Virus record (IMG/VR): IMGVR_UViG_3300032067_000004
Span: 1 to 46,488 of that record
Length of the DNA: 46,488 nucleotides
Source: a virus
Taxonomy: Duplodnaviria > Caudoviricetes
Reading direction: 5' to 3' (one strand)
Under the pieces are notes generated by a model. That model made no database searches. It was not told the origin of the DNA and worked only from the letters and a program-made list of their open reading frames with translations. This document shows, piece after piece, positions 304 through 46,215 of this stretch. Numbering within the stretch: position 1 is the first letter of the stretch; each line of letters opens with the position of its first letter. Made by a program: the position numbers and the translations under genes.

Positions 304-355
304 AAGACTTGTGCACATCTTGATGACATTCGGCCCTAATTTGTAATTTCACAAA

Positions 356-655
356 ATGAAAGATACACTCAAGGCAGTTCCTACAAAGAGTGAAGGCATT
401 GGCTATATCAAATTTGATCGAAAAAAAGGAACACGCATTCATACTGTCGGCGCCGAAGCTATCGAATTTCTGGAATGGTATGAGAAAAATAATCGGCTGC
501 AATTCACTATGCTGCCATTTCAACAATCCAACTTTTTGTTAGCTTACAAAAACCAAGGTGTATGGCGTTTCACTCAAGCTTTTCAAACGCTAGCTGATGC
601 GATTACTTATCTTTCCCCTTCCAGACTCCGAGTTTTAATTGAATACACATCATAA
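356..655 (+). CDS. Hypothetical protein
   Basis: 99-aa ORF with its ATG directly after a palindromic motif. Confidence 0.65.
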   Translation: MKDTLKAVPTKSEGIGYIKFDRKKGTRIHTVGAEAIEFLEWYEKNNRLQFTMLPFQQSNFLLAYKNQGVWRFTQAFQTLADAITYLSPSRLRVLIEYTS

Positions 656-690
656 GACGACAAAACAACGATTCGAAAGACTTCCAATCT

Positions 691-1161
691 ATGAAAATCC
701 AACTCACCCTTGAACAAGTTCAATCTTACTCCCCTTGCTACACAGAGGAAAAGTTAAAATCTTTTTTTCCAAACAACGAACCCAGAGAAGTAACTTTAGA
801 ATCTCTTCTCTCACTTCCACTTCGGGATGCGGTATGGTTACTTTCTCATCTTCTTCCTCATACCTTGCGTGTCCAATGGGCTAACAACAGTGCAACAAGG
901 GCAGCAAAGACAGCAGCATGGGCAGCAGAATGGGCAGCATGGGCAGCATGGGCAGCAAAGACAGCAGCAGAGGCAGCAGAGTCAGCAACAAGGGCAGCAG
1001 AATCAGCAGCAGAATCAGCAGCATGGGCAGCAGAATCAGCAGCAGAATCAGCAGCATGGACAGCAGCAGATGCAGCACGGGCAGCAGCAGAATCAACAGC
1101 AGGAAAGTCAGCATATAAACTCGCCATTGAAGATGGTTTTAATCTTCTTTCCAATCAATGA
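691..1161 (+). CDS. Ala/Trp-repeat helical phage protein, copy B
   Basis: 156 aa; unique N-terminus followed by an AAW/AAES/ATR/AAKT repeat tract. Confidence 0.8.
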   Translation: MKIQLTLEQVQSYSPCYTEEKLKSFFPNNEPREVTLESLLSLPLRDAVWLLSHLLPHTLRVQWANNSATRAAKTAAWAAEWAAWAAWAAKTAAEAAESATRAAESAAESAAWAAESAAESAAWTAADAARAAAESTAGKSAYKLAIEDGFNLLSNQ

Positions 1162-1208
1162 AAGACACGATTGATTGAAACCAAATTTTAATTGAATACA
1201 CATCATGA
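1158..1208 (+). pseudogene. Internally deleted relic of the 356-655 gene
   Basis: Reads MKDTID*NQILIEYTS* versus MKDT...LIEYTS* for 356-655; nt 1186-1215 match 632-661 with one mismatch. Confidence 0.6.
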
Positions 1209-1354
1209 GACGACGTGAAACAAGTGGCAAACCTGAACCAAAACACCAACTCGAAAAACTTCCTACAAGAAAGGAAATGCAAGCAACCAATCCAAAATAC
1301 AAAGTCACTTTTCGTGACGGTGTAACTTCACTATTCAATAAGAAAAAGAAATGA
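1205..1354 (+). CDS. Small basic hypothetical protein (49 aa)
   Basis: ATG-TGA ORF filling the gap, with ATGA overlap into the next gene. Confidence 0.45.
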   Translation: MRRRETSGKPEPKHQLEKLPTRKEMQATNPKYKVTFRDGVTSLFNKKKK

Positions 1355-1623
1355 ATACTCTAATGTTTCTATCAGGAGTAGGTATCGGCGCATTAACCTC
1401 AATGTGCTTACTTTGGTGGGTAGTTATAAAAAGCGTTAAAAAAATCAAACAAGATGAAGAGCATCCATACCTTACGCTCATGAAAGAGCGCAATGCAATC
1501 GCGCAAAAACAACTTGATCTTCAAGTAAGTCATGTCGAGCAAACAAAGAAACAAATTGCGGAATGGAATTCACAAATGACACCTCCATCCGCAGCAACCT
1601 TTATTCATCCAAATGAATGCTGA
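1351..1623 (+). CDS. Hypothetical single-pass membrane protein
   Basis: N-terminal hydrophobic segment followed by a basic, coiled-coil-like tail. Confidence 0.65.
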   Translation: MNTLMFLSGVGIGALTSMCLLWWVVIKSVKKIKQDEEHPYLTLMKERNAIAQKQLDLQVSHVEQTKKQIAEWNSQMTPPSAATFIHPNEC

Positions 1624-1688
1624 ACGAAACAAGTTTTTTCGTCTTCTTTTTCTTCTTGTAATATCTATCCTCACTTCTTATTACTCTT

Positions 1689-1883
1689 ATGCCCAACGAA
1701 ACCCGCAAACTCCGATCCAAGTTCAAAACAGCCAAAATTCTCGCTGATCATATTGCGATTCGTGCAAAACTTGTAAGCTTACAAATGCACGTCACTTTCA
1801 CTCCAGAACCTGAATCATTCATGGCGTTCGCTCGTCGAAGAGGGATTCGATACAACGGAGCAAATGCAGGAAGAGGATATTGA
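1689..1883 (+). CDS. Hypothetical protein
   Basis: ORF in a tightly packed operon. Confidence 0.55.
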   Translation: MPNETRKLRSKFKTAKILADHIAIRAKLVSLQMHVTFTPEPESFMAFARRRGIRYNGANAGRGY

Positions 1884-1893
1884 AAGATAGTTT

Positions 1894-2205
1894 ATGCTTG
1901 CGACTGTTCAAAGGACTTGCTACCGTTCAGATGGCATGCCTTACATGGAACATCGCACGTATGATCAAGCATTGAAATTATGGGGATGGAGTGACAAATC
2001 AATTGACGCTTGGATTTTTGAAGATTGGGATATTGCAGAACAGCATATCAAACTATTGAAACTCCAAGGCGAAAAGAAATTTGTTGCTCCATTCGTCCAC
2101 TCCAAATCTGAACAAGAAAAACGAAAATTTATTTTAGAAGCTTACAAAAAAGGTATTTCACCTGATGAAGCTTACCGCCAGTTAGAAAAAAGAAATTTAG
2201 CATGA
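1894..2205 (+). CDS. Hypothetical protein
   Basis: ORF in operon. Confidence 0.6.
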   Translation: MLATVQRTCYRSDGMPYMEHRTYDQALKLWGWSDKSIDAWIFEDWDIAEQHIKLLKLQGEKKFVAPFVHSKSEQEKRKFILEAYKKGISPDEAYRQLEKRNLA

Positions 2206-2212
2206 ACAAATA

Positions 2213-2494
2213 ATGGATAAAACTTTCTGCGACAGTTGCAAACAGGAAAAGACGGACAAAAATACATGGCAACGTAGTGATCGAATCACAGTCCCAATCA
2301 CAACAAAACCTTGGCTTAAAGATTATACTGTTGATGTTGAAATTTCTGTGCATAATGATTACAATTGGATTTGCAAAAATTGTCAACTTAGTGCAGTATC
2401 AGCATATCTAAAGAAACAATTCCTAGCTAATTTGTTACCTAACAAAATCAAGGTTGGTAAATCCAAATCAAAAGCTAAAAAACCTCGCAAATAA
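2213..2494 (+). CDS. Hypothetical Zn-finger protein
   Basis: Two CxxC pairs (CDSC, CKNC). Confidence 0.6.
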   Translation: MDKTFCDSCKQEKTDKNTWQRSDRITVPITTKPWLKDYTVDVEISVHNDYNWICKNCQLSAVSAYLKKQFLANLLPNKIKVGKSKSKAKKPRK

Positions 2495-3207
2495 TGGACC
2501 TTATCATTTCTCCTTTTGTAGAGCGGCAGATTTCAGAAATTCTCGCACCGCTCAAGAAACCTGAAAAGTGGATGGCATTCAATCTGCCTTTCTTTCCTAA
2601 ACCTTTTGCTATTGTGCGCATGGAAGGGCAGCCAGGAACAGGAAAAACAACGATAGCTCGACATATGGCGAATCAAGTCAGCACACGATCTTCCATTATT
2701 AATTTTGCTGATGTTGCCAATTCACATTTTTCTGAGACAGAAACGAAAATCACAACAGCTTTTGCGGAAGCTACAAAGAAGAAAAAGAATACTCTTATCT
2801 TTGAAGAAGCGGACGCGCTTTTTTGGGACCGAAGCATGATCAATGAAGATAACATCCTAAATATTGGGATAGTTAATACTCTTCTTGTAGAGATCGACAA
2901 ATGGAAACAGCGGCAAATTCCTTCTCTACTCCTATTCACAACCAATCATCCTGACTTGATTGATAAAGCTTTGGAATCTCGAATCACAGACGTTGTTAAG
3001 CTGCAACCTCCCATTGGTGAATTGGCAGAGCAAATGTGGATTTCCAAATTTCCAAAGAATTTGAAATATGACAAAGCGGATATTTCTGCAATGGCAACAT
3101 GGGGTTGCACACCTCGCCAAATGGAAGATGCTGTAATTCATGCATGTCGTCGCGCTCTTCTTGAAAATCGTGCAGTAAGAATCGAAGATATACATCAGAA
3201 TTCATGA
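2494..3207 (+). CDS. AAA+ ATPase (classical AAA type)
   Basis: Walker A GQPGTGKT, Walker B LIFEEAD, sensor TTN and DKALESR arginine-finger region. Confidence 0.9.
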   Translation: MDLIISPFVERQISEILAPLKKPEKWMAFNLPFFPKPFAIVRMEGQPGTGKTTIARHMANQVSTRSSIINFADVANSHFSETETKITTAFAEATKKKKNTLIFEEADALFWDRSMINEDNILNIGIVNTLLVEIDKWKQRQIPSLLLFTTNHPDLIDKALESRITDVVKLQPPIGELAEQMWISKFPKNLKYDKADISAMATWGCTPRQMEDAVIHACRRALLENRAVRIEDIHQNS

Positions 3208-3584
3208 AAACTCCCATTATTGTAAAAATCAAAAATAAATCCTCTGAAATTTGGTATATTGATATTGAAGAAGGGGACAATTTGGATGAAAAAGTCAAAA
3301 GCATATTACCTAAAACTCTTGCATTCGACCAACTTATCGGATTTGTTTGCTTTTGTGAAAGTTGTCAACATACTTTTCTTTTGCAAATGGCATATCTCGC
3401 AGGACAAATTGGAGAGTTTATTGACGCAACTTCACTTGATGTAGTGCGACAATTCATTGTAGATGCTAATCCAAATTCAATGATTGCAGAACAGCGTCCC
3501 TGCCATCTACTTACAATTGATATGCTTCTCTCTTGTAGAAGTGTGTTGCAAAAAATTCCTGAAAATATTGTCATTAAAGATTGA
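3204..3584 (+). CDS. Hypothetical protein
   Basis: ATGA-coupled ORF containing CFCESC. Confidence 0.6.
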   Translation: MKTPIIVKIKNKSSEIWYIDIEEGDNLDEKVKSILPKTLAFDQLIGFVCFCESCQHTFLLQMAYLAGQIGEFIDATSLDVVRQFIVDANPNSMIAEQRPCHLLTIDMLLSCRSVLQKIPENIVIKD

Positions 3585-3608
3585 CAAATAATAAATTTCT
3601 GCTATATT
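3581..3608 (+). promoter_or_regulatory. Sigma70-type promoter
   Basis: TTGACA-16-TATATT with an extended -10 TG. Confidence 0.7.
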
Positions 3609-3619
3609 AACACTATCAA

Positions 3620-4066
3620 ATGAGTATTCTTAAAGAACAACATCGCCGTAAGTTGTCTCCGCGTGTCTCTTCTACAAAAGAAGAGACGGTAAAAAAAGCT
3701 GCGGAAGAAGTTTTAGCTGGTCAGCTTGCGGTGACTGATGTTCAAAAGAAATACAAAATTGATTTTGTCACATTACAAAACTACATCAGAAAAGAATTTC
3801 CTACTGATGTCGAAAAATATGATTTTCTAGAAAACGTCATGCAAGCCAATGCGATGATGGCAGCAGGACATTTTGCGGATAAGGTAGGTGAGCTATCTGC
3901 AATTGATGCCGCCCGCGCCGCTAATATGTTTGCTAATACTGCACTTTCAATCAAAAAAGCCAGAGAAGACGGGTTCAAAGAACGCCCAATCAGTATTGGA
4001 GTTTTAATCAATCTCGAAAAAACCCTTAAAAATGTAACTCCTGCAACTGTCACAATCAATGAGTAA
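3620..4066 (+). CDS. Putative HTH DNA-binding protein (psq-like HTH; could be a small terminase or a regulator)
   Basis: KAAEEVLAGQLAVTDVQKKYKIDFVTLQNYIRK resembles an HTH. Confidence 0.5.
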   Translation: MSILKEQHRRKLSPRVSSTKEETVKKAAEEVLAGQLAVTDVQKKYKIDFVTLQNYIRKEFPTDVEKYDFLENVMQANAMMAAGHFADKVGELSAIDAARAANMFANTALSIKKAREDGFKERPISIGVLINLEKTLKNVTPATVTINE

Positions 4067-4286
4067 GCCAAAGAAAAAAACAAAACGCGCCGCCTCCTTG
4101 GTGCCGGGGATTATTCAAGTATTGAAGACAAGTTCCAGATTTACTTGCAAATTCAGTGATCTTCCCGAATCCTACAGAAACCAACCCTATAATCTTGCGT
4201 CAAAGATTGCATCTCGGGGAGGAATACAAGTCAGAGCAGTGTTTAATAAAGATCAAGACGCATTTTGCCTAATTAGACAATCATGA
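4059..4286 (+). CDS. Hypothetical basic protein
   Basis: Overlapping coupled ORF. Confidence 0.6.
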   Translation: MSKPKKKTKRAASLVPGIIQVLKTSSRFTCKFSDLPESYRNQPYNLASKIASRGGIQVRAVFNKDQDAFCLIRQS

Positions 4287-4612
4287 AAGCTACCCTACAA
4301 CCATTCTACGACAATCTCATTTTGGAAGCAATCGAGGCTGCGGATCGCACATCATCGGGAATTATTATTCCAGAAGCACATCGAGTGGATCTTTCACAAG
4401 GAAAAGTAATTGATAAAGGACCCCTCGTTTCTGATTCAATTAAGCTCGGCGACATTGTATTTTATGCGCCACATAGTGAAACGCGAATTGCGTGGCGTGG
4501 AAATAAATATCGTATTGTCGCTGAAAGTAATTGCCTCGGGCGAATTCGCGAAGAGGAATCGGAACCCCATCCAGAACTGAATTTGGAAGGTAACAAAACC
4601 GATGCCGCTTGA
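4283..4612 (+). CDS. groES: Co-chaperonin GroES (Cpn10) homolog
   Basis: LQPFYDNLIL...TSSGIIIP...GKVIDKGP...IKLGDIVFY pattern. Confidence 0.9.
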   Translation: MKATLQPFYDNLILEAIEAADRTSSGIIIPEAHRVDLSQGKVIDKGPLVSDSIKLGDIVFYAPHSETRIAWRGNKYRIVAESNCLGRIREEESEPHPELNLEGNKTDAA

Positions 4613-4961
4613 ATGTCCTGCAAATTACTTTGGTAAAGGTAAGGATTACATCCTCCAACCTGACTTTGCCGAAGAATTTGATCGTCGATGGAAAATTTGG
4701 GAGAAAGAAAATCCCGAAGACCCTACAGGAGAAAAAGCATTAGCTTTCTATGAATCTTCGCAATCTACAGAAAGAAAAGAAGAGACGGCTAATCAAGGGC
4801 AAACCGAAAAACAAGCTCTCGAAGATACTAAAAAATTTCGTCTTGAACTTGATGCTCAAGACATAGAGAGACTGAAAGCATATGCAAAATACAAGCGAAA
4901 ACGCCCCCGCGACATCATTACCCTCTGGATCAAAACCTATACCCCTGAAGTCCACGGTTAG
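4602..4961 (+). CDS. Protein with a C-terminal ribbon-helix-helix (CopG-like) DNA-binding domain
   Basis: KFRLELDAQDIERLKAYAKYKRKRPRDIITLWI has a beta-alpha-alpha pattern. Confidence 0.55.
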   Translation: MPLECPANYFGKGKDYILQPDFAEEFDRRWKIWEKENPEDPTGEKALAFYESSQSTERKEETANQGQTEKQALEDTKKFRLELDAQDIERLKAYAKYKRKRPRDIITLWIKTYTPEVHG

Positions 4962-5076
4962 CCACGAAGATTTGATCCAAAGAATGCGAGGATGCAGTTT
5001 AGCTGTAATTCGCCAACGTCTTGTAAAACTCACAGAAGAAGAATACACTGCGGTTGTAAAACTTTTCAAACATTAA
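4882..5076 (+). CDS. Hypothetical protein
   Basis: Short ORF overlapping the previous gene and ending at a motif. Confidence 0.4.
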   Translation: MQNTSENAPATSLPSGSKPIPLKSTVSHEDLIQRMRGCSLAVIRQRLVKLTEEEYTAVVKLFKH

Positions 5077-5085
5077 TTTTGTAAG

Positions 5086-5280
5086 ATGACAAATCTCATA
5101 TCCACACATAAATTAACTGGCTACCGTATGGTGTGGCGCGGTTATAGATATGGTTGGATATGGGAACCAACTTTCACAATTGTCCTTATAAAGACAAGTG
5201 AAACGCGTTGTGTCAGCAACGTGAAACGACCAACATTGCGCTGCAAGCGCCCACGTCAGGAGGCATCTACTTATGGTTAA
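5086..5280 (+). CDS. Hypothetical protein
   Basis: ATG embedded in the palindromic motif. Confidence 0.45.
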   Translation: MTNLISTHKLTGYRMVWRGYRYGWIWEPTFTIVLIKTSETRCVSNVKRPTLRCKRPRQEASTYG

Positions 5281-5414
5281 TTACACCCACCTTGGACGGG
5301 TGGGAACCTGCAATTTGAACTGACATTCAACACAGGCAACATAATAACTGGCAACCGTGACAGATTCCGCGGTATAAGGTTAAGTGGATTATTCCGACAG
5401 ATAAAATTCGCAAT

Positions 5415-5469
5415 TGGGGAGAGGTGTTAGACCAATGCCTCGCAAGTTTAACCCTCTCCCCATTCTTTT
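5415..5469 (+). terminator. Long hairpin, probable terminator or structured RNA element
   Basis: TGGGGAGAGG/CCTCTCCCCA stem plus inner GTTAGAC/GTTTAAC stem, followed by TTCTTTT. Confidence 0.5.
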
Positions 5470-6789
5470 ATGCTTGATCAATTAGACGATAATCAAAAAC
5501 GCGCGTTAGATATGATGGCTGAACCATCTTCTCCAAATGTGTTTGTTGCATGGTGGGCAATGGGGACTGGCAAAACACGTTTAGCTCTCGCCGCGTTTTA
5601 TTTGTCAGATTACAAAGATTGTATTATTGTCTGTAGGAGAATTTCATTTGAAGATTGGATGGATGAAATGGAAACAATTGGATTTAATAATGCCAATTGC
5701 TATACCAATGATTATCAACCAACCAATCTAGTTAAATTGTCATGTCACAAAAATCCTAAAAGGATTCTTTTTTTGTCAGCAGGTGATCTTAAAAACATTC
5801 CAATTTACTTTCCAAAAGGTCAAATGTTGATTGTTGATGAACTTTACCTCTTTTGCAATGCACAAGCCAAACGATCTATCCTTTTGCGTCAAATGTCATT
5901 ATTTTGTTCTGCGAGGATTGGTTTATCAGGAACCATCATGCCATCGCGAGACAATACTGCAATCTTTGGTCAACTTGCTGCTCTTAATGCACATCATCCA
6001 CTTGCTTCTGGAACAACAGAATTCCGCCTTCGATTCCAAGTTAAATCGAAGACAAAATATGGCATTAGCTATGTTAATAAACCGAATTCTGACCAAGCAA
6101 TTAACGCACTTATCAGCGATCGAGTTGATTGCTACTTTCCTGAAAGTCGCCCGACACGAATACAACTTTGTAAACTCGACAAAACGAAAGAGCAAGAATT
6201 AGCAATTAAAGAGCTAAAAGAAACCTATAACCACAAAGATAAATCATATAAATATGCTCTTCAAATTGTTCATGCTATTAATGGCATTAGCAATGGATGG
6301 TTTGTTAATTCGGATAACAATTTGGAATATTACAAATCATCGAAACTCGAAAAATTATTTTCTTTGGTTGATGATATTGTTGCAGGTGGACATCGTGTTG
6401 TCGTGTGGTGTGCTTATCATGCTGATATTTCTCGAATTGCTAAAGATCTAAAACATCCGTGGTTGGAATTTTCTGGGACTACTCCTTTTTCTTCTGTAGA
6501 ATGGCAAAGTGGTAAGTTTTCAGTTGTGCTTGCAACAGAAGCGATGGGTGCATCAGTCAATCATTTTAAGCACGTTAAATACGCAGTCTATTACTCAATT
6601 AATTACAAGTATTTAGATTTGCAACAATCAATGGCTCGCCATGAAAGGAAAGGTTCACAACATGATGGCGCGCATTACTACTTTTTACAGACACGAGGAA
6701 CGATGGATGCCCGAGCTTATCAACTCGTAAGTGATTCGCGTTCTACAGAAGAAGAAATAATAAAAATACTAGCAAATGAATCTTGGTGA
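5470..6789 (+). CDS. SNF2-like superfamily II helicase
   Basis: WAMGTGKT, IVDEL, LSGT and QSMARHER motifs. Confidence 0.9.
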   Translation: MLDQLDDNQKRALDMMAEPSSPNVFVAWWAMGTGKTRLALAAFYLSDYKDCIIVCRRISFEDWMDEMETIGFNNANCYTNDYQPTNLVKLSCHKNPKRILFLSAGDLKNIPIYFPKGQMLIVDELYLFCNAQAKRSILLRQMSLFCSARIGLSGTIMPSRDNTAIFGQLAALNAHHPLASGTTEFRLRFQVKSKTKYGISYVNKPNSDQAINALISDRVDCYFPESRPTRIQLCKLDKTKEQELAIKELKETYNHKDKSYKYALQIVHAINGISNGWFVNSDNNLEYYKSSKLEKLFSLVDDIVAGGHRVVVWCAYHADISRIAKDLKHPWLEFSGTTPFSSVEWQSGKFSVVLATEAMGASVNHFKHVKYAVYYSINYKYLDLQQSMARHERKGSQHDGAHYYFLQTRGTMDARAYQLVSDSRSTEEEIIKILANESW

Positions 6790-6964
6790 TAATCCACTAG
6801 CAGAAGAATATCGGGCAGCATCACATGATTGGCAAAAGAAATGGAAAGCTGCCGATGATGAGTTACAAAAAGCTAAACAAGAAATTGTAAGCTTACAAAC
6901 TAAACTAAAAGAAGCTGGTGAATTAATTGCACTGGCTAAAACTATTTTACTTTTTTATACATGA
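6776..6964 (+). CDS. Hypothetical coiled-coil protein
   Basis: Heptad-like ORF. Confidence 0.55.
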   Translation: MNLGDNPLAEEYRAASHDWQKKWKAADDELQKAKQEIVSLQTKLKEAGELIALAKTILLFYT

Positions 6965-7128
6965 AAGGCTTTGTTTCTGTAGAGTCATATGGACAGGTGC
7001 AGGAAATGAATCGTAAGAATTTGATGCTCATACATCAGATGCGAAAAGAAATGATTGAGTTGAAAAATCAAAATCGTCAACTCAAGAAATTTTTAAAAAG
7101 AGTGTCAATACTACTTGACAGAAAGTAA
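6961..7128 (+). CDS. Hypothetical small coiled-coil protein (55 aa)
   Basis: ATGA-coupled ORF MKGFVSVE...LLDRK. Confidence 0.5.
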   Translation: MKGFVSVESYGQVQEMNRKNLMLIHQMRKEMIELKNQNRQLKKFLKRVSILLDRK

Positions 7129-7143
7129 CTTTTGTGATATTAT
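7115..7143 (+). promoter_or_regulatory. Sigma70-type promoter
   Basis: TTGACA-17-TATTAT with an extended -10 TG; ATG 7 nt downstream. Confidence 0.75.
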
Positions 7144-7150
7144 AATAAAA

Positions 7151-8104
7151 ATGAGTGATCCAATCTTTTCTCCCCATATTCTTCGCGCTGAAACTTTGGA
7201 AGATGGTGTTACGCAATCTGAACTTTCAATGTTTGATGAATGTGCGTTTAAATGGAATGCACGGTATAACTGGCTTTTACAGCGTGCAGATCATTTTCCT
7301 TGGCCTTTGTTCGTAGGAGCAGCGTGGCATAATTTTCAGGAAGCCTTTCACAAAGACCCAAATTGTGATGTTACAAAATTTGTTGAGCCAGTAATTCCGG
7401 GTAATATCGCTCGTGATTCTGAATTTGAGAAATGGTTGGATTATTGGGCATGTGTGATGCCTGCATATCAACAAGTATATGCAAGGATTTATGAAGAGGA
7501 ACGCCATCATGAGTGGTTTATTGTAGAAGAAGAACTTTCCGCTAATTTGTTAGATTTCAAAATTCGTGGAAAGATTGATCTTGCTTCTGAAACCTTGAAA
7601 TTTATTCGAGATTTTAAATCGACTGCATCAGCTTGGCTTACGGCTCCAGACGGGTGGCAATTTAAGTTACAATTCATGACTTATTGCTGGCTGATGGTTC
7701 AAAACTATCCGAAATGGGGGAAGAAGAAATTTGCATTTCAATTGGATATGATGCAAAAACCGGGACTCAAACAAACAAAAGCGGATGGAACTTGGACTGG
7801 ACATATTACTCGCGTTTGCAATGATATTGCTTCTCGTCCTGAATTTTACTTTCAGCGATCTTCGTGTGACATATTTCCAGAAGCAATTAAACGATTCGAA
7901 GATGAAGTTTTAGTGCCTAAGCTTCAACGTCTGGCATTGGTTCGTGATAATCCTGCTGAGTGTGAGTCAATTATCTTGAACAAAAACACTAATGCTTGCA
8001 ATTCATTTGGCAACCGTTGTGAATTTTGGGATATTTGTGAAAAAGGATGGGATGTCTCCAAATTCTTTTTTCAAAATCGTGAAATCAAACATCAAGAGCT
8101 ATGA
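7151..8104 (+). CDS. PD-(D/E)XK exonuclease, Cas4/RecB-like, with probable Fe-S cysteines
   Basis: N-terminal Cys, E...RGKIDL...DFKS and C-terminal CxxxxxxCxxxxxC. Start moved to the ATG downstream of the promoter. Confidence 0.85.
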   Translation: MSDPIFSPHILRAETLEDGVTQSELSMFDECAFKWNARYNWLLQRADHFPWPLFVGAAWHNFQEAFHKDPNCDVTKFVEPVIPGNIARDSEFEKWLDYWACVMPAYQQVYARIYEEERHHEWFIVEEELSANLLDFKIRGKIDLASETLKFIRDFKSTASAWLTAPDGWQFKLQFMTYCWLMVQNYPKWGKKKFAFQLDMMQKPGLKQTKADGTWTGHITRVCNDIASRPEFYFQRSSCDIFPEAIKRFEDEVLVPKLQRLALVRDNPAECESIILNKNTNACNSFGNRCEFWDICEKGWDVSKFFFQNREIKHQEL

Positions 8105-8292
8105 TCACACTTGATCTTACAGAAGAAGAAGCAGAATGGCTTCGAGATCGAATGCAAAATCCTTTACATGAAAATGAATCATATACAGATGAACAACAAC
8201 GGCATTCATTTTTTACCGTCCTTAATGAAGGATTAGGGCAGGGGCATCGAAATAAAGAATTCGTAAATGGTCCTGATGATATTCCTTTTTAA
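8101..8292 (+). CDS. Small acidic protein ending in DDIPF
   Basis: 63 aa; C-terminus matches the bacterial SSB acidic tip. Confidence 0.65.
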   Translation: MITLDLTEEEAEWLRDRMQNPLHENESYTDEQQRHSFFTVLNEGLGQGHRNKEFVNGPDDIPF

Positions 8293-8502
8293 ATGAAACT
8301 AAACGATTCTTCTCTAATGCCTTTTGGAAAACATAAAGGAATAAAAATGATAGATGTCCCAGCCCAGTATCTTTTATGGCTTTGGGATAATGGCGTGTAT
8401 GCAGAACCATCTAAACCTATTCATCAGTATATTAAAGAAGTCTTTTCAGTTCTTGAAATAGAATGTAAAGATTACATTGTGCAACATAAACCTTTAAAAT
8501 AA
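8293..8502 (+). CDS. DUF3820/ExoX-C-terminal-like small protein
   Basis: MPFGKHKG...DVPAQYLLWL signature. Confidence 0.8.
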   Translation: MKLNDSSLMPFGKHKGIKMIDVPAQYLLWLWDNGVYAEPSKPIHQYIKEVFSVLEIECKDYIVQHKPLK

Positions 8503-8521
8503 TTTGTAACCTCACAAAATT

Positions 8522-9436
8522 ATGCCTCCACTAAAAGCACCTCCTCGTAAACCAACGACAGCAACAGTCACTCCTACAAAACCTCTCGCACGTCGAACAT
8601 ACGCAACGGGAACAGAAGATGGACTTCCCGGTGAAGCAACTGACCAAGATGTAAAAATGCAAAATCTCCGTTGGATGATTGTTGCACCTCCAGGTTGGGG
8701 AAAAACACAACTGATGTTCAATTTCCCAAATGCTCTTAATCTTGCTGTAGAAGAAGGCCATAAATTTATGGCAGGATTCAAAATCATTATTGACGAATGG
8801 GAAGGAAGTGCAGAATCGACAGACAGCGATGATAATTTGCATATCTCGTTTTTGGAAGCTGTCAAACGTATCGAAGAATCTCAGCGTTTCGAATTCATTT
8901 CGATTGATACTGTCGATGCACTTTGTAAAATGTGTGCGGATTACTACACTTCTACAAAGAAAGTAGAGCATATTTCAGACCTTGGAGATTACGGCAAAGG
9001 ATATGATTTGGCTCAAAATGATCCAATGCGCAAGGCACTTACTACGATTTTCAAATCAGGCCGAGGTATTGGATTGATTACACATCAGTATGTTACTCAA
9101 TCCAACTTCAAAAAAGGAGTTGCAGCTAAAAAGGAAACCACTCTTCCACCCGGTATTTTCAAGCTTATCATGCCACAAATGGATATTGTGGTTCATGGTG
9201 AATTTGGTGGAATTCGCGAAGGCCAAAAGCATCGTGATCGTATTCTAAAATCAGAGGGAAGTGAAGACATCCTCGCGAAAAATCGTGGTGGAATCCTGCC
9301 TCCTGCATGGATTGTTCCTGTTGATCCAATTGAAGCACAAGCTCAAATCAGAGAATTTTTTACTGGTTCAAAAGAAGAAAGAGCCGCTCGCGTAAAAGAA
9401 GCACACGAACACTATCTCAGCTTTTACGAAGATTAA
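8522..9436 (+). CDS. Sak4-like (AAA_24) P-loop ATPase / recombinase
   Basis: APPGWGKT, ISIDTVD, LITH; sits between the exonuclease and SSB genes. Confidence 0.8.
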   Translation: MPPLKAPPRKPTTATVTPTKPLARRTYATGTEDGLPGEATDQDVKMQNLRWMIVAPPGWGKTQLMFNFPNALNLAVEEGHKFMAGFKIIIDEWEGSAESTDSDDNLHISFLEAVKRIEESQRFEFISIDTVDALCKMCADYYTSTKKVEHISDLGDYGKGYDLAQNDPMRKALTTIFKSGRGIGLITHQYVTQSNFKKGVAAKKETTLPPGIFKLIMPQMDIVVHGEFGGIREGQKHRDRILKSEGSEDILAKNRGGILPPAWIVPVDPIEAQAQIREFFTGSKEERAARVKEAHEHYLSFYED

Positions 9437-9494
9437 TTTCAGGTTTTGTAACCTGACAAACCAAGCAAACAAAACAAACTAAATCAGACATACT

Positions 9495-10052
9495 ATGCCC
9501 GTTCTCAAAAAACCCAACGCTCCTGTTGCTACACCTGCAAAAGCACAACCCGTCGCTAAAGCTCAACCTGCGGCTGCAAAATCAAAACCAATGGATGCTT
9601 TCGGTCAGCGATTGTCGGAAATCGACGCGAAGGAGGGACGTAGTTGGAATGCCCCATTGCCGGGGACTTACAATGCGCTCATTGTCGAAGCACAAGGAGT
9701 AACCGACAATCTCAAACAAGCCGCATATCTGGAAGTGATTATCGCAGATGAAGAACCAGCTTCTGAATATGGCAAAAAATGCCGTATTTACTGGAACTTC
9801 TTCAATGACAAGGGAGAAGAAAATACAGATGGCATGGCTTACTTCAAATCCGCTTTCGCGATGCTCGGATATGAGACTCCGACAACGTGGGACGGAATGT
9901 GTGAAGACCTTGCGGCGATGGCAGCCGAGGGTATGTGGGTTATTATCACGGTTGCCGAAGCGAAAAAATCCACAAAGGCAGGTGCAGTGAATGTTTATCT
10001 TGATTCGGTTCCAGACAATCAAGATGAAAAGCCAGCGATGCCAACAGCGTAA
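9495..10052 (+). CDS. Phage ssDNA-binding protein (DUF669-like)
   Basis: PLPGTYNALIVEA motif; located after the Sak4-like gene. Confidence 0.65.
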   Translation: MPVLKKPNAPVATPAKAQPVAKAQPAAAKSKPMDAFGQRLSEIDAKEGRSWNAPLPGTYNALIVEAQGVTDNLKQAAYLEVIIADEEPASEYGKKCRIYWNFFNDKGEENTDGMAYFKSAFAMLGYETPTTWDGMCEDLAAMAAEGMWVIITVAEAKKSTKAGAVNVYLDSVPDNQDEKPAMPTA

Positions 10053-10150
10053 TCCTTTTCTAAGGAACGCCGCACAGTGGTCGGAGAACCAAGAACTCCC
10101 AACCGCTGGCAGACCGGATATAGTCTGCCTTATCCCCTTTATAACATGGC

Positions 10151-36867: not shown

Positions 36868-36888
36868 AATTTTTGTTAGATTACAAAA

Positions 36889-37317
36889 TTACTTTCCGCC
36901 TCCATCCAACGGAATTGAAACATTTGCAGATGCTTCTGGTCCTGTTGCTTGAGAATCGCTTACGGTAATTGTTGCGCGGCTCCCTTTTGGAAGATTGAAT
37001 GTAGGTTGAGTAGCGCATCCTACAGAAAAGAAAAAGAAAAAACCGATAAGAATCAGCGGCAAAATCTTTTGTGAACCGTCTGAAAGTGCAACTTTTGCAG
37101 GATTGTTTGTCGCTCCGTTGCCAGAAACGTCTTTGTCTTTTGCTTGAGTGAAAGCAATGAAACCTGCAATGGTTGCAGCGGCGCCAGTTACCTTCGCCAC
37201 AATAGGTGCAGGCACCCAAGAAGACAAAGTGGTTGGATTTAGAGCCAAATACATGCAAAGCATGCAAAAAAAGCCAAAAAGAGTCGTTTTCCAATTATTA
37301 CCGAATAGCGTAGTCAT
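36889..37317 (-). CDS. Putative holin, with a third hydrophobic segment ending in a lipobox-like SVGC
   Basis: NWKTT start, 2-3 TM segments, next to the candidate endolysin. Confidence 0.6.
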   Translation of the reverse strand: MTTLFGNNWKTTLFGFFCMLCMYLALNPTTLSSWVPAPIVAKVTGAAATIAGFIAFTQAKDKDVSGNGATNNPAKVALSDGSQKILPLILIGFFFFFSVGCATQPTFNLPKGSRATITVSDSQATGPEASANVSIPLDGGGK

Positions 37318-39551
37318 TATTGTGCTGGATTTGGAGCACCCTGCATAGGTGCTGGGTTTTGTGGTTGTGCAGGTCCAGAAGGGGCGCGAACTGCACCTTT
37401 ATTCTGAATTTGCTGTTGTTTTAACTGAAATTCACGTAATTGTTGACGATGTTCATCCATCAACTGTGCTTCTTGAATCATCATCGCTTGCTTTTGTTGT
37501 AACATTACAAATTGCTGATGAATCTGAATTTGATATGCAAGATATTGAGCACGTGTCATCCCCTGATGAGGAGATGGAAGACCTGCCATTTCTTCATTAT
37601 AGGTTGAATTGACATCTTGCAAAAATCTTGTCTTTACTGTAATTGCAATTTGGTGATCTTGACTTGGATCAATTGCAATAACTTTACCATAGTATGTTTC
37701 AACTGCTTGTGTAGTTGCTGTTGAAACTTGAAATTCAAATCCATTATCCTTTACTGCATCCAATGCTTCCGTCAATCTCAATTCACGGAACAACGCTTTC
37801 CACAACATCGCTTGATCCAAAAATGGAGAAGTAGTCGAAGAAGCAATCGCCTGTTGTAAATGTTGTTGTTTTACAATGGATTCAATGAATGTTGAACCTA
37901 CATCCGTTTTAATTCCAATGGAAACTAGCAAATCTTGATCATCAAGAGGAGTTGCATCAGAAACTCCACAAATTCGATCACGAATACTTTTCGGCATGAA
38001 CATCTGCAAATTTTCCCAATGCCGGATAGCATAATTTTTGTAATGTGCTAAACTGAAACAATCAATATCAGCAGTAACACCTGACATGGAAGCTTGAAAC
38101 GCATTACTAGCTTCGGTTGCGGTTGTTCGTCCGCCCATTGCCTCTCCCATGATTGCGTCAACTGCTTTGCCTGTTGTGCGTGCTTTCTTGTCCGTTGTCT
38201 CGATGAAAATCGACGTTGTTTGTGTCGCATCATAAGGTTGCCGACGATTTACGTCATTTGGTCCTGTGACTTCATACCTTGCACCTGGACGATTAATATT
38301 ACTATTTGTCGCCGCAGGACTCCCCATTTGCACTTCTGTAGGTGGATTATTAATCCAATCCTTATTTAGAATATATTGTTCAGTTGCACGAACAATTTCT
38401 ACATAATGTGATTCCAGAATTTCGCCGATGGCTGGCGTATACATTCCAGAATCCAAATCAGGAATATGAGCACAACCAAATAAAGGTAATCTGCCATGCG
38501 GATAGAAAAGTTTTTGAATCCGAATCGGAACGATCTTTCCAGAAAAAAGATTATTGGCAAAGCATTGCACAATATATCTTTGAACTTTTGGTTTGTCTGG
38601 ATTGTTTCTTGTAGAAGGAAGTGTAAGGTAAGGGTAAAATGTCCACAAAGCTTCGCCTGAATACTCAGGACGCATTTGCGTCATAATTCCTTTTGCGCCT
38701 TGTGGAAGTGCATCAGTAAATGCCTTAGCTTCTGGCCCATACAACCACTGTGCCGCACCTAACTTATCCAAATTCAAAAATCCAAATGGATTTAACTTTG
38801 GATCATACTGATTTTCCAAAACCTGACTGCGAGGAACTACATCAAAGAAAAATGGACAAACTTGTTTCTCCATTTCATCAATTGGAAGCATTGGATTTAA
38901 CCAAAGCTTACGAGTTGATACAGGAGTAAAAGTAGTTCCAATATCTTTTACCAAGAGAAAGTCAGGAGAACGTGGATCAGGTTCAACATCAAGAACAAAA
39001 TCACAATGGGTGAAAGAATGCCCATAAAGATAATGATGCTGACATAACGGAGTATGTTTACCGCGAACATTTTGAGTTTCATTGTTCCAATCTAATGCCG
39101 CATTGGACATTTGAAGTTTCCGATTTGTAGGATTATAAAATTGGTCTTCCAATGGAGTAAACAAGTTAGGAGGCATGTTATACTGCACTGGACGATCTTT
39201 CCACGAAATGAAATAATTCAATCGTGTCAAACGATCTACAGTATCAAAAATTAAAGTATCCGCAAGCTTGAGAGGGTCTTCACCTGCGAAATTGATTGTT
39301 GTCTCTTCTTGCTTTTGAACCGAACGCGCTTGAGATTTATCCCGTTGCGCTTTATACATTTCTTTCAATGTATCCCATTTTGCCTCAAACGGTAATCTTG
39401 TAGTAACCTGCGGCCAAATATAATCCGTGAACATTTGACTAAAGATTTTTTCCAATTGATCTTGAGAAAAATCTCCTGCAATATTTGGAGGAATTTTCGC
39501 AGCAATAGCCAACACTTCTTGTAATGTTTGTTGTCGAGCTACTGTAATCAT
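37317..39551 (-). CDS. Portal protein
   Basis: 744 aa, follows terminase; RTTATEAS motif and Q-rich C-terminal tail typical of podovirus portals. Confidence 0.85.
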   Translation of the reverse strand: MITVARQQTLQEVLAIAAKIPPNIAGDFSQDQLEKIFSQMFTDYIWPQVTTRLPFEAKWDTLKEMYKAQRDKSQARSVQKQEETTINFAGEDPLKLADTLIFDTVDRLTRLNYFISWKDRPVQYNMPPNLFTPLEDQFYNPTNRKLQMSNAALDWNNETQNVRGKHTPLCQHHYLYGHSFTHCDFVLDVEPDPRSPDFLLVKDIGTTFTPVSTRKLWLNPMLPIDEMEKQVCPFFFDVVPRSQVLENQYDPKLNPFGFLNLDKLGAAQWLYGPEAKAFTDALPQGAKGIMTQMRPEYSGEALWTFYPYLTLPSTRNNPDKPKVQRYIVQCFANNLFSGKIVPIRIQKLFYPHGRLPLFGCAHIPDLDSGMYTPAIGEILESHYVEIVRATEQYILNKDWINNPPTEVQMGSPAATNSNINRPGARYEVTGPNDVNRRQPYDATQTTSIFIETTDKKARTTGKAVDAIMGEAMGGRTTATEASNAFQASMSGVTADIDCFSLAHYKNYAIRHWENLQMFMPKSIRDRICGVSDATPLDDQDLLVSIGIKTDVGSTFIESIVKQQHLQQAIASSTTSPFLDQAMLWKALFRELRLTEALDAVKDNGFEFQVSTATTQAVETYYGKVIAIDPSQDHQIAITVKTRFLQDVNSTYNEEMAGLPSPHQGMTRAQYLAYQIQIHQQFVMLQQKQAMMIQEAQLMDEHRQQLREFQLKQQQIQNKGAVRAPSGPAQPQNPAPMQGAPNPAQ

Positions 39552-41700: not shown

Positions 41701-42250
41701 GGCACACTTAGAAGGCACACTCTAACGGATGGCACACTCTATTACGTCAGACGGCACACTTAGAAGGCACACTCTACTAGACGGCACACTTAGAAGGCAC
41801 ACTTAGACCGTAGACGGCACACTTATGTCGCAAATGGCACACTCTAAACGGGTTAGGCCGTTTTTATTTTAAAACAACACATTGTTCTGACCCTCTCTTT
41901 ACCTACTGACTCTAAGAGTGTATGTGTGAGTATGTATATGTATATAGTGTTATATATACACTAACTAACATGAATATAGAGATATAGGGAGGAGGAGGGA
42001 CAATGTGATGAAAATAAATAAAAACAGCCCGGTCAAATTAGACGGCACACAATCCCACCTAACGGCACACTCCGCGCTTTAACGGCACACTCAGACAGCA
42101 CACTTTATTAGATAACCCACTTAGAGTGTGCCATTTACGCAATTAGAGTGTCCTTTTTATTTCTCAGAAGGCACACTCTGGAAGTGTGCCATTAGATGGC
42201 ACACTTAAGTGTCAGATGGCACACTTAGATGGCACACTTAGATGGCACAC
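41701..42250. repeat. GGCACAC(T) short-repeat clusters: 19 exact copies in two blocks
   Basis: 9 copies at 41701-41842; 8 forward and 2 reverse copies at 42044-42250. Confidence 0.95.
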
Positions 42251-42264: not shown

Positions 42265-42292
42265 TTGACAACTCGCCAAAATCGCCTATTGT
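42265..42292 (+). promoter_or_regulatory. Early sigma70-type promoter
   Basis: TTGACA-16-TATTGT. Confidence 0.6.
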
Positions 42293-42323
42293 GGTGTTGT
42301 CAGCCAATTTGTAACCTCACAAA

Positions 42324-43195: not shown

Positions 43196-43235
43196 TTGAC
43201 ATTTCCACCCTGTCGGCTATTCTTGTAGCCGACAG
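43196..43235 (+). promoter_or_regulatory. Sigma70-type promoter with a 10-bp inverted repeat over the -10
   Basis: TTGACA-16-TATTCT; CTGTCGGCTA-ttcttg-TAGCCGACAG. Confidence 0.65.
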
Positions 43236-43292
43236 TAGGAAGTAGCAAAAATTGTTACCTCACAAAACCAAAAACCAAAAACAGAACTCCAT

Positions 43293-43949
43293 ATGGCTAA
43301 GATCGCTCAACCAAAAGCTCCCACCACGAAACAAGCTGCTCCAACCCCGGCAACTCCGACCAGCGCGCAAACCGAACAACCCGCGCCCGACATCAGCATT
43401 TTGGTCGGAAAACTGGAACCGCTCTTCGCTGCCCGTGTGGATGGCGAAAATGCGCTGAACAACAACTCACTTAGCATCATTATCGCTGTCCGCGAATTCC
43501 GCGAGGAGAATCCGACGCTCGATCGCAACGATTGCAGACTCGCGATCCAGACCGCTGTTGCCGCGAAATACGGACTAAAGCTGGCAGCCGTTCAGAACGA
43601 CAAGAAACCCGGCGAAAAGGGATACAGCGCATATACGCTCGTTTCCGCGCTTCTCTCGGCTGCATGGCCGAAAGGTGAGGCAGAGGAGAAGCGAGTGCAG
43701 AAGGCACTCGCGCAAGGCAAGGGTTATGTCGAAGTGCGCAGAGCGGCCAGCAAACCACAAGCGAACGGCGGAGGCGGAGGCGGCAACCCTCGCTTGATCA
43801 CTCCGGAAAACTTCGCGACAAAACTCGCGACGTTCCTGACTCAAGCGCAAGTAGACATCCCGAACAAGACGATGCCCGATATTCTGGATATGGCCGATGC
43901 TGCTATCAGAGCCATCCGGACGAGTCCAGCGGCACAGCCTGCTAGCTAA
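43293..43949 (+). CDS. Hypothetical early protein in its own transcription unit
   Basis: 218-aa GC-rich ORF bracketed by a promoter and a terminator. Confidence 0.75.
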   Translation: MAKIAQPKAPTTKQAAPTPATPTSAQTEQPAPDISILVGKLEPLFAARVDGENALNNNSLSIIIAVREFREENPTLDRNDCRLAIQTAVAAKYGLKLAAVQNDKKPGEKGYSAYTLVSALLSAAWPKGEAEEKRVQKALAQGKGYVEVRRAASKPQANGGGGGGNPRLITPENFATKLATFLTQAQVDIPNKTMPDILDMADAAIRAIRTSPAAQPAS

Positions 43950-43970
43950 GACAAAGAGTTGTAATCTCAC

Positions 43971-44001
43971 AAAAACCCGCTCTGCAAAGGGCGGGTTTTT
44001 T
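43971..44001 (+). terminator. Intrinsic terminator (possibly bidirectional)
   Basis: AAAAACCCGC...GCGGGTTTTTT. Confidence 0.85.
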
Positions 44002-44015
44002 GTTGTCATTATCAG

Positions 44016-44044
44016 TTGACAACTTCCCTTTAGTGTGCTATATT
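44016..44044 (+). promoter_or_regulatory. Sigma70-type promoter
   Basis: TTGACA-17-TATATT with an extended -10 TG. Confidence 0.75.
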
Positions 44045-44054
44045 GCTACACAAG

Positions 44055-44507
44055 ATGAAAGCACGTCCCAATCCTCACCTAATAGCTGCGATGCAGAAGG
44101 CGCTCGCACAAACGACCAAAACGGAAGTGAAGCCAGCCGAACAAACACGCTCGCTTGTTCCCATACCCGCACCAAGCATTCCAGAAGAATTAACCGGACC
44201 TAGACCAGCATCACACCCATTGCTAGATCGCTGGGCGATTCGAGGTATCAAGCTTTCTCCCTCCAAGGTTTCATATTTCGCTCTTTTGAAAGGCTCTTAT
44301 TTCTGTGTAGTGCGACAGACGGGCGAACCCCTCGCGATGACTCGTCACTTGATTGATCTATATAAAGTGCCAATGGGCGCAACCCTGATATCTGAAATCA
44401 TGGAAGAAAAGCCAATCGGACAAGCTCTGACTCCTGCCTTTATCTTTCACGATCTAAGCGGAGCATGCCGGGCGATCATGGCAACCCTCCCCGAATTTGT
44501 AAGCTGA
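44055..44507 (+). CDS. Hypothetical early protein
   Basis: ORF starting at the ATG 10 nt after the -10. Confidence 0.65.
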   Translation: MKARPNPHLIAAMQKALAQTTKTEVKPAEQTRSLVPIPAPSIPEELTGPRPASHPLLDRWAIRGIKLSPSKVSYFALLKGSYFCVVRQTGEPLAMTRHLIDLYKVPMGATLISEIMEEKPIGQALTPAFIFHDLSGACRAIMATLPEFVS

Positions 44508-44522
44508 CAAAATTCAACACCT

Positions 44523-45359
44523 ATGGAACTGAACATCACCGAAGACCAAATCCAAGCAACCCTCAAAGCGAGACGCTCGCAACGGATGGGCGCGAAGCTA
44601 TCAATCCCGCCCGCCCCTACAGAAGAGAAAGAGACAGGCGAAATTCGACACATCCTCCATCAAACAATTCATGATTTGATTGAAATGCGCGAAAACATTT
44701 GGATGGTAGGACCGGCGGGCAGTGGTAAGTCCAAAGTCGCGGAAATCGTGGCAGAGGAATTAGAGATGCCCTATTATGCGCCGCCTATCGGACGTGAGAC
44801 AACGAACGCGCAATTGTTTGGCTACTTCAATGCAGCGGGAAACTACGTGCGCACACCTATCCGTGAGTGTGTCGAAAATGGGGGCGTGCTTCACTTGGAA
44901 GAAATTGACTTTGCAAGTCCCGCTGTTGGCACTGCATTGAACGCATTGCTCGCCAATGAAAAGATTGGCTTCCCTGACTTAACAATTCAGCGGCATAAAG
45001 ATTGCATCATCCTCGCTAGTGCAAATACCTTTGGCACGGGTGCGAACGCAACCTATATTGGCTCAATGGGCTTAAATGCCGCAACGCTCGATCGCTTCAT
45101 CTTTGTAGATTTCCCTTACGACGAACGGATGGAAAAGCGCATAGCACCGAACAAAGATTTCTGTCTTCATGTTCAGTCCATTCGGCGCAAGGTCAATAAG
45201 CTTGGATTGAAGCATGTCGTTTCGCCTCGTGCCACAATCAAAGGCGGAAAAATGATCAACTCTGGTAAATTCACCTTGGAGCAAGTGGAAAAAATGGTGA
45301 TCTTCAAAGGATTAGACAAGCTGACCGTGGATAAAATCAACGCGACAAGCGACGTTTAA
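44523..45359 (+). CDS. MoxR/CobS-like AAA+ ATPase
   Basis: GPAGSGKS, LHLEEID and ASANTFG...LNAATLDRF. Confidence 0.88.
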   Translation: MELNITEDQIQATLKARRSQRMGAKLSIPPAPTEEKETGEIRHILHQTIHDLIEMRENIWMVGPAGSGKSKVAEIVAEELEMPYYAPPIGRETTNAQLFGYFNAAGNYVRTPIRECVENGGVLHLEEIDFASPAVGTALNALLANEKIGFPDLTIQRHKDCIILASANTFGTGANATYIGSMGLNAATLDRFIFVDFPYDERMEKRIAPNKDFCLHVQSIRRKVNKLGLKHVVSPRATIKGGKMINSGKFTLEQVEKMVIFKGLDKLTVDKINATSDV

Positions 45360-45360
45360 T

Positions 45361-46215
45361 ATGTGGGATACTGAAATTGAGATAATTCACAAGAATTATT
45401 CGACCCTCGAATCCTTTTTGGATTATTCACAACAGGATCACCCAAATGATGGGCCGGATTCGTCACGCTCTTCGTTGTTAGTCCGCCCACATTTCACGCT
45501 CACACGTTCCAAAGATGAAGCTTACGATCTAATACGTAAAGGCAATCCTGCGGGATTAGAGCGCATGCTGAAGATATTAGAAGCCTTGGAATCTAACATC
45601 TCACTACCAGCTACGCATGATGAATTTCTTTCTTCTGTAGACGGGTGCGCGCCAAATGTGGAAGCATACATTCAAGGGATTCCCGAAGACATGTTTGTAA
45701 TCTCACAAATTGAAGATGAGATGCCCCCTTCTTCTCTTGTAGTGCAATTGGAACTTACGGTTTCCGCAATGTTCTCACCTACTCAAATTGAATATGCTGG
45801 CGCAATTTTGTTTGCCGCTGCTCAAGCTTTGCAAATGCAAGGTTGTGCTGTGCAATTCATCCTCACTTATGCAATGAAAGATCGAGGGTTGGCGCATATC
45901 ACTACAATCCCCTTGCCTCGCAACACGGATTTGGATACTCAATCCTTTCTTCTCACACATCCCGCGATGTTGCGCATCCTCATGTTTTCAGCCTGGGAAC
46001 ATGAGCCAAAAGATATTCGGAATCGTATGGGATTCTGGAATGGAGGAGGGTATGGAACCCCGTGGCCTGCCTGCCCTTTGCAGGAGGGTTGCGATGTTAA
46101 ATTTAATCTACAAAGGCTTTGCCTTGCAATTTTGAGAGGAGGGACATCAATTGAATTTTGTCAATCACTTCTCCTTCAGTTAATCGAAACTAAATTTGGA
46201 ATGTCACAAAAATGA
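45361..46215 (+). CDS. Putative vWA-like partner of the MoxR/CobS ATPase
   Basis: Adjacent to the ATPase; DGCAPNVEAYIQGIPEDM and HPAMLR...GYG pattern seen in such phage gene pairs. Confidence 0.55.
   Translation: MWDTEIEIIHKNYSTLESFLDYSQQDHPNDGPDSSRSSLLVRPHFTLTRSKDEAYDLIRKGNPAGLERMLKILEALESNISLPATHDEFLSSVDGCAPNVEAYIQGIPEDMFVISQIEDEMPPSSLVVQLELTVSAMFSPTQIEYAGAILFAAAQALQMQGCAVQFILTYAMKDRGLAHITTIPLPRNTDLDTQSFLLTHPAMLRILMFSAWEHEPKDIRNRMGFWNGGGYGTPWPACPLQEGCDVKFNLQRLCLAILRGGTSIEFCQSLLLQLIETKFGMSQK

Follow-up and report, generated by a model that had tools for sequence, protein, structure and literature searches.

matS and Noc sites are palindromes at which host proteins organise DNA, and the temperate Streptomyces phage phiC31 has dispersed inverted repeats that are bound by a phage protein, the repressor c. 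The closest known case to the one presented here is the dyad repeat of the Cluster O mycobacteriophages. This is a 17-bp TGTTCGG-N3-CCGAACA of which Corndog carries 34 copies; binder and function are unknown according to the available parts of the report (PMC4351075). Since Cluster O, scattered dyads of this kind have lacked an explanation in phages without an obvious temperate lifestyle. Here we report on an array of dyad sites in IMGVR_UViG_3300032067_000004, a complete phage record (Caudoviricetes) of 46,488 bases; below, the window means this whole stretch. The array is real and is a variant of the known but unexplained dispersed phage dyads. A single phage family provides at least four spellings of the site, genomes in transition between them, spacing that follows a measurable rule and a candidate protein of small size, and it can be tested in vitro without the host.

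The dyad array of the window

The sequence TTGTNANNTNACAA was present 38 times in the window, whereas 100 dinucleotide shuffles contained 0.23 copies on average and never more than 2. With up to one mismatch 63 matches were found versus 4.0 expected, and many of these were variants with a TTGG or CCAA arm. A symmetric site matrix of about 22 bits with A/T-rich flanks was trained on 54 core sites and used with a cut-off of 12 bits. It retrieved 61 sites from the window and 0.4 from 8 Markov samples. A preliminary description had listed 37 copies of a 16-bp site. All 37 were present, each listed start being one base before the 14-bp core; an exact site at 21485 had been missed. The full 16-bp form, TTTG...CAAA, was found in 25 of the 38 exact sites and was absent from the other 13. 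Six one-mismatch variants which had been named (13324, 15893, 16982, 36320, 40919 and 46195) are real. The proposed density of one site per 1.25 kb, in contrast, was an underestimate; with the 61 matrix sites it is about one per 760 bp.

Twenty-two of the exact sites were located within coding sequence, 13 were intergenic and 3 extended across a gene end. In 500 synonymous-codon shuffles coding DNA contained 1.5 exact sites on average and at most 5 versus the 22 observed. The exact motif occupied 22 of the 24 places which the protein sequence permits, whereas codon-order shuffles gave 0.07. Thus, amino-acid choice itself appears to be shaped by the sites. Selection at the nucleic-acid level had been suggested before, with a codon-preserving shuffle as the check, and was borne out by it. 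Chance and codon bias as the source of the array were ruled out by the dinucleotide, synonymous-codon and codon-order comparisons.

The 61 sites were evenly spread. The mean gap was 761 bp and the largest 2,108 bp; the coefficient of variation (CV) of the gaps was 0.49 versus about 0.97 in random placements, of which 0 in 5000 were as even. When the 16 sites at gene junctions were held fixed and the rest was scattered, the null CV had a mean of 0.92 and a minimum of 0.64. Two complete or nearly complete related genomes gave similar values, G001 with 59 sites in 50.6 kb (CV 0.50) and G011 with 73 sites in 52.0 kb (CV 0.51), and four of six fragments were significantly even. In the window, six evenly spread sites were situated inside one structural gene of 5.2 kb. 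Even spacing through large structural genes suggests that the length of uncovered DNA is limited. This favours a coat over the genome rather than stoperator-like silencing.

The free arm positions of the window dyads paired no more often than in shuffled sites (16 versus 18.4 and 14 versus 17.3 of 54). Covariation between the arms was absent in the window, in the TTAG lineage of relatives described below and in G001. Arms without covariation indicate that the site is read as DNA, as expected when two subunits each read one half-site. The earlier view of a site shaped for a dimeric DNA binder genome-wide is in line with the dyad and with its independently varying arms. The dyads are very probably bound as DNA by a phage-encoded dimer.

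Spellings in related phages

Relatives were gathered by capsid and terminase scans and their dyads by de novo scans; the spelling patterns were derived from these same loci. The related loci lacked the window's motif, but each had another dyad in the de novo scan. The spelling TTTA(G/C)NANNTN(C/G)TAAA (TTAG) was used by relatives with 74-77% capsid identity, and TTGCA-N4-TGCAA or TTGCA-N5-TGCAA by more distant ones. All 25 related contigs of at least 3 kb had at least 4 sites of one of the four spellings, and the 1.8-kb L015 had one (26 contigs tabulated, several of them near-duplicates; L019 and L021, each under 1.4 kb, were left out of the scan). L010 and L011, which at 25-27% capsid identity are too distant for a test of co-absence, contained none of the four spellings. 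Each lineage has its own spelling, whereas array, density and often position are kept. The expectation of a motif conserved in relatives thus does not hold as originally worded.

In close relatives the same codon often carried a site in other letters. Mappable window sites coincided with a site of the relative in 5 of 16 (L027), 3 of 13 (L013) and 2 of 3 cases (L101) compared to about 0.1 or fewer expected. In six distant loci only 1 of 41 window sites had a positional match. This indicated that over short distances sites are passed on with a change of letters, whereas over long distances they are placed anew. Intermediates were observed as well. L111 mixes spellings (5 TTGT and 4 TTGCA sites) and L102 mixes spacers (17 even and 8 odd). 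In the capsid tree TTAG lineages are on several branches around the clade of the window. Therefore, the TTGT spelling of the window was probably derived within this clade. Because the letters change between lineages while the array stays, a phage protein is favoured over a host protein of the matS/parS/Noc type.

Further observations concern individual contigs. In L102, GTTGCAAC, itself a palindrome, occurred 45 times in 16.7 kb, i.e. the half-site is self-complementary in this lineage. L101 (G010) is a 5.4-kb phage fragment with TTAG sites from a Cyclobacteriaceae bin; it has no host flanks and is probably mis-binned. A viral scan for the commonest exact site returned 66 loci. Ten core sites were present in 2 of them and two in another 4; the remaining 60 had a single one. 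An unrelated phage record of about 90 kb, G009, contained the same motif 14 times, TTGG variants included (L098:9262-16384, corresponding to 81.3-88.4 kb of G009; also G008). Thirteen of the 14 copies were within about 7 kb, as a dense cluster in a non-coding stretch and as single copies before repeated genes. We take genes of G008/G009 to be WhiB-like.

A candidate binder and competing explanations

Which protein could bind the sites? On the basis of sequence and structure models, we lean slightly towards the product of the early gene 43293-43949 as the binder (Table 1). It had 14 close homologues and 37 cluster-level matches, and its neighbours in a protein atlas were exclusively viral. The domain was modelled with a predicted local distance difference test score (pLDDT) of 92.5. 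The best fold match had a Z of 6.1. ParB was not among the matches listed, nor was a repressor with helix-turn-helix and stoperator domain among those listed in the fold and sequence searches; sequence searches of solved structures gave nothing credible. A ParB-like fold, suggested by eye, was not found: neither the whole model nor residues 55-157 produced a match in Foldseek or VIA. Using our own alignment a homodimer was predicted with a score of 0.82, whereas the controls did not exceed 0.01. Of 30 dimers with a solved structure 20 scored this high, of 23 single chains 1. The runs shared at least 93% of contacts at a pLDDT of at least 83. Residues 95-160 were outside of the predicted interface. 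They have a net charge of +6 and were positive in 31 of 39 homologues, whereas the flanks had a median of -3.

The gene has positional counterparts in relatives. A profile of 39 homologues, built without the L102 protein, detected L102:3701-4315 at an expectation value (E) of 3.8e-6 among 272 open reading frames (ORFs), i.e. at the same place in a genome with another spelling. A gene of similar size was located there in G001, L003, L004, L007, L102, L105 and L107; downstream of each, a hairpin with a T-run resembles a terminator. Long structured leaders precede the candidate gene upstream of L024:6994, L004:1149, L003:1298 and L007:2025 and at 43190-43240 of the window. The leaders of four relatives share GTTCTTTGA(C/A)A, followed by hairpins; to us this resembles an antitermination boxA. 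Three proteins had been put forward initially as binders. The 43293-43949 product and the helix-turn-helix protein 3620-4066 have counterparts in relatives; for the ribbon-helix-helix-like protein 4602-4961 no homologue was found in the relatives searched. The helix-turn-helix gene is antisense to its neighbours in G001 (L023:17147-17728) and G011 (L105:1707-2321) and co-directional with them in the window.

The reading we prefer, at chances just short of even, is that a phage protein coats its own genome, organises it and marks it as self, and that this protein is most likely the 43293-43949 product. The approximately 60 evenly spread sites would then dock a dimer made by the phage. The protein would be an abundant early product of a unit with its own promoter and terminator, and would damp its own synthesis via the site in the leader. 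A symmetric dimer would form via helices 30-93 and 168-209 and leave two basic regions (95-160) free, each of which would read one half-site TT-(G/A)-(T/G/C)-N-A; the putative full target is TTTGTAACCTCACAAA. Selection would act on how long a stretch may stay uncovered and not on the control of individual genes. By way of hybrid sites, the protein and its targets would change in step and give each lineage a private address. The benefit may be found among compaction, transcription timing and nuclease shielding. A more specific version is more tentative. In it the coat would be addressed by sequence, a new-fold early homodimer on private dyads at a fixed pitch of about 750 bp, re-tuned via hybrid sites, such that each lineage covers only its own DNA; it would serve protection, self-recognition or entry, and not gene switching. 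If the 43293-43949 product binds, it would represent a DNA-binding fold absent from the searches run, and the family would supply a natural series of orthogonal protein-site pairs. It would also document the joint change of specificity in a protein and its 60-70 sites, many of which are in essential genes.

Several findings weigh against a coat made of this protein. The 61 sites were counted with a matrix trained on the same sites, and the 38 exact sites alone were only modestly even (CV 0.72, P 0.015). Evenness was not significant in two of the six fragments (L018, P 0.14; L009, P 0.056). Eighteen of 59 gene starts have a site at -45 to +8, which equally fits gene regulation. The 43293-43949 product did not match any DNA-binding family or fold in Pfam, PHROG, Foldseek or VIA, and DNA binding is proposed from its charge, its symmetry and its surroundings. 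The counterparts in G001, L003, L004 and L007 showed weak homology (profile-profile E 0.0024, probability 12%; E 0.0058 and 0.034 after adding L102), and at E 2 no match was obtained to the ones in L105 and L107. The helix-turn-helix gene is common across the phage family, too. Finally, no homologue of 43293-43949 was found in G008/G009; thus the motif can arise otherwise.

Stoperator-like silencing is an unlikely alternative to a coat. A phage repressor, either the 43293-43949 or the helix-turn-helix product, would block transcription genome-wide; the phage would thereby persist in a dormant carrier state and confer immunity to phages that share its spelling. The sites about 10 and 22 bases past the two first promoter matches and those before the 18 gene starts agree with this, and the lineage-specific spellings resemble immunity groups. 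Also, the junction sites were polar with transcription (12:0, position 5 versus 10, P 0.0005), a bias which may be explained by stop codons and start-region composition. However, the 54 sites taken together were not polar (19:12, P 0.28), nor were those of G001 (11:14), and codons account for part (0.19 versus 0.04) of a sense bias of the TTGG variants (14:1). Six even sites in a single 5.2-kb structural gene are more than silencing needs. Tyrosine integrase (PF00589) was not detected in G000, G001, G002, G011 and G012 by a profile search in which 14 of 14 controls matched, nor was resolvase (PF00239) in G000, G001 and G002 (12 of 14 controls matched). Integrase, ParA and ParB were without a Pfam or PHROG match among the 60 window ORFs. 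Further, the site is a dyad, whereas stoperators of the L5 type are asymmetric, oriented 13-mers, as far as the accessible parts of the source go (PMC9283540).

Do the sites constitute a packaging address? In this improbable case the helix-turn-helix gene 3620-4066, which we read as small-terminase-subunit-like, would be a displaced small subunit which reads the dyads so that DNA of its own lineage alone is packaged. Its product had helix-turn-helix-like neighbours in the protein atlas, and homologous proteins were detected in G001 (E 2e-4) and, using a profile that included the G001 protein, in G011 (E 1.8e-15). No small-subunit gene was identified beside the large terminase. Yet a terminase family match for it was not found, and dyad symmetry and operator-like placement would be left unexplained. 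What also counts against packaging is that small terminases as a rule assemble into rings and recognise a single pac or cos region.

An entry ratchet is quite improbable. The 43293-43949 product, made from the first-entering DNA, would bind each site as it emerges and pull the genome in. A bound on gap length would follow naturally, the gene is about 1 kb away from what is presumed to be the origin or end region, and no RNA polymerase was detected among the 60 ORFs in Pfam or PHROG. There is a parallel in phage T5, where, according to the available parts of the source, second-step DNA transfer depends on A2, a pre-early protein that binds DNA, through a mechanism which is unknown (10.64898/2026.04.02.716235). 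However, the record does not show physical genome ends; it closes as a circle by a 50-base overlap. A ratchet does not need a lineage-specific sequence, and site density near 43293-43949 was the same as far away.

It is highly improbable that the phage has borrowed the sites of a host chromosome protein (matS/parS/Noc-like). phi29 with five host parS sites and Spo0A boxes is a precedent in the parts available of PMC2731898; further, the unrelated G008/G009 share the motif and the distant relative L111 uses the TTGT spelling of the window. Against this, phages with 74-77% identical capsids differ in spelling, and hybrids as well as mixed spacers were observed in individual genomes. The cellular bin which holds a relative had 2 TTAG-type sites in 4.6 Mb versus 6 for the control, and this bin, G010, is probably not the host. 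That the element works as an RNA hairpin, in the start of translation or in its coupling, is hardly credible: many junction sites fill the space before the ATG, Shine-Dalgarno words precede just 3 of 59 genes and the arms paired with a mean probability of 0.42 in folding, but antisense pairing was about equal (0.38), arms did not covary in three lineages, arm-breaking variants were common and 45 of the 61 sites are away from junctions.

Genome setting and known systems

The coordinates of sites, candidate genes and signals are compiled in Table 1.

Table 1. Dyad sites, candidate binder genes and signals in window coordinates
Feature	Position	Strand	Remarks
38 exact dyad sites TTGTNANNTNACAA	341..45708	.	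core starts 341, 536, 1771, 2432, 3765, 5079, 5602, 5737, 6885, 7363, 8504, 9446, 10527, 12287, 13069, 18121, 21485, 22217, 23775, 24533, 25751, 27461, 29423, 31200, 33058, 34599, 35348, 35936, 36873, 37497, 39605, 40074, 41575, 42309, 43252, 43959, 44497, 45695
23 variant sites of at least 12 bits	2134..46209	.	mostly TTGG- or -CCAA arms; 2134, 3061, 4583, 6322, 7547, 11699, 13325, 14035, 14845, 15894, 16983, 19516, 20144, 20427, 22781, 25163, 26431, 29111, 29912, 31815, 36321, 40920, 46196
4 hybrid sites	2134..38051	.	one arm in the spelling of the TTAG lineage; 2134, 14035, 34010, 38038
Helix-turn-helix gene, 148 amino acids	3620..4066	+	second candidate binder; homologues in G001 and G011
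Ribbon-helix-helix-like gene	4602..4961	+	weakest candidate; label by reading, no family match
GGCACAC repeat region between divergent arms	41701..42250	.	19 copies (17 forward, 2 reverse) in irregular units of 13-22 bp, iteron-like; no dyad site within
First early promoter match and dyad	42265..42322	+	promoter 42265-42292; dyad 42309 about 10 bases downstream, directly before ATG 42324
sigma70-like promoter match TTGACA-16-TATTCT before 43293-43949	43196..43223	+	consensus match only; overlaps a 10-bp hairpin and is possibly a leader element instead
Dyad site about 22 bases past presumed transcript start of 43293-43949	43252..43265	+	operator position
Early gene, 218 amino acids (P0102)	43293..43949	+	lead candidate binder; all-helical, no known family; predicted homodimer with free basic region at residues 95-160
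Dyad site, then intrinsic-terminator-like hairpin	43959..44000	+	closes 43293-43949

The window encodes a terminase (confirmed via relatives), capsid, adaptors, a helicase, a primase-MCM helicase and a family A polymerase, further Sak4, RuvC, GroES and a pair of CobS-like ATPases. The genes point outward from a non-coding region at 41.5-42.3 kb, and the two arms converge near 15.96 kb. The non-coding region 41701-42250 is possibly an origin or packaging region. In a strain comparison with contigs of four runs only 20 differences were found, a number too small for a test of constraint. Nineteen were in 41460-42180, and the dyad sites contained none; most fall within or beside the GGCACAC region. 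A step in read depth near 41.9 kb is uninterpretable, as the runs had been chosen by the left part. At least half of the sampled words of the window were present in six soil metagenome runs, one of which is possibly its own source; an RNA run was not among the listed holders. Promoter matches in the window were of the sigma70 type, and 29 of 59 genes had an A at -3. The near-absence of Shine-Dalgarno words despite sigma70-like promoters may help to place the host.

Other genes include a lone response-regulator receiver gene (15953-16417), a GH75 chitosanase-like gene (36391-36867), a UDG-fold gene just 5' of the polymerase gene (13076-13636) and the GroES gene (4283-4612). The gene at 691-1161 has an Ala-Trp/Ala-Glu-Ser low-complexity repeat, and its 5' part (start region of about 100 codons) is echoed at the end of the window, from 46300-46488 into position 1.

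A cultured close relative was not found; the best capsid identity was about 28%, the primase-helicase reached 25-33% among the matches listed and the 43293-43949 product had no such match. Locus searches with the primase-helicase and with a close alignment of the 43293-43949 product yielded no loci, and wider alignments were too divergent for scanning. Literature on this phage family or motif was not found in a search to which subscription journals and supplements were external.

How does the array compare with known systems? The family of phiC31 repressor c was a weak atlas neighbour of the 43293-43949 product (score 0.81, under the threshold). Its profile, PF25746, gave no match in G000, G001 and G011 at E 1, with no positive control over the cut-off, and was not among the Pfam matches listed for 40 members of the homologue family (best 25 of 46 families). 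A ParABS/parS system is not supported: ParA and ParB had no Pfam or PHROG match among the 60 ORFs, and the sites are evenly spread and not grouped at an origin. The parS sites and 0A boxes of phi29 are likewise palindromes of similar length which organise or move DNA (PMC2731898, available parts); yet there are five parS compared to about 60 window sites, and a change of spelling between close relatives would not be expected for host-protein sites.

In function, the putative coat would resemble p6 of the lytic podophage phi29. This abundant dimeric protein covers the viral DNA, organises it and influences when genes are transcribed. p6, however, reads bendability and binds every 24 bases, according to the parts available of PMC10899789, whereas the window has a 16-20 bp sequence of about 22 bits every 760 bases. 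With the stoperators of Cluster A (L5, TipsytheTRex) the array shares more than 20 genome-wide sites, a location in promoter regions and short intergenic spaces and a diverging specificity. Those are monomer-bound, strictly oriented, asymmetric 13-mers of temperate phages (PMC9283540, as accessible); the window family has dyads, a predicted dimer as binder, most sites in genes and no integrase found. The preliminary description had named L5 stoperators as an analogue. As membership this fails on dyad symmetry and on the integrase that was not found, and polarity is not family-wide.

The likeness to Cluster O is greater. There, too, more than 30 dyad copies are inter- and intragenic in a phage that is not obviously temperate, relatives have them at similar positions and a dimeric binder was proposed, as the available parts of the report describe (PMC4351075). 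Sequence and host group differ, and the Cluster O arms are invariant and the sites denser toward one genome end. The window family, in contrast, is characterised by degenerate arms, even spacing in three genomes, a switch of spelling with hybrids and a named candidate binder.

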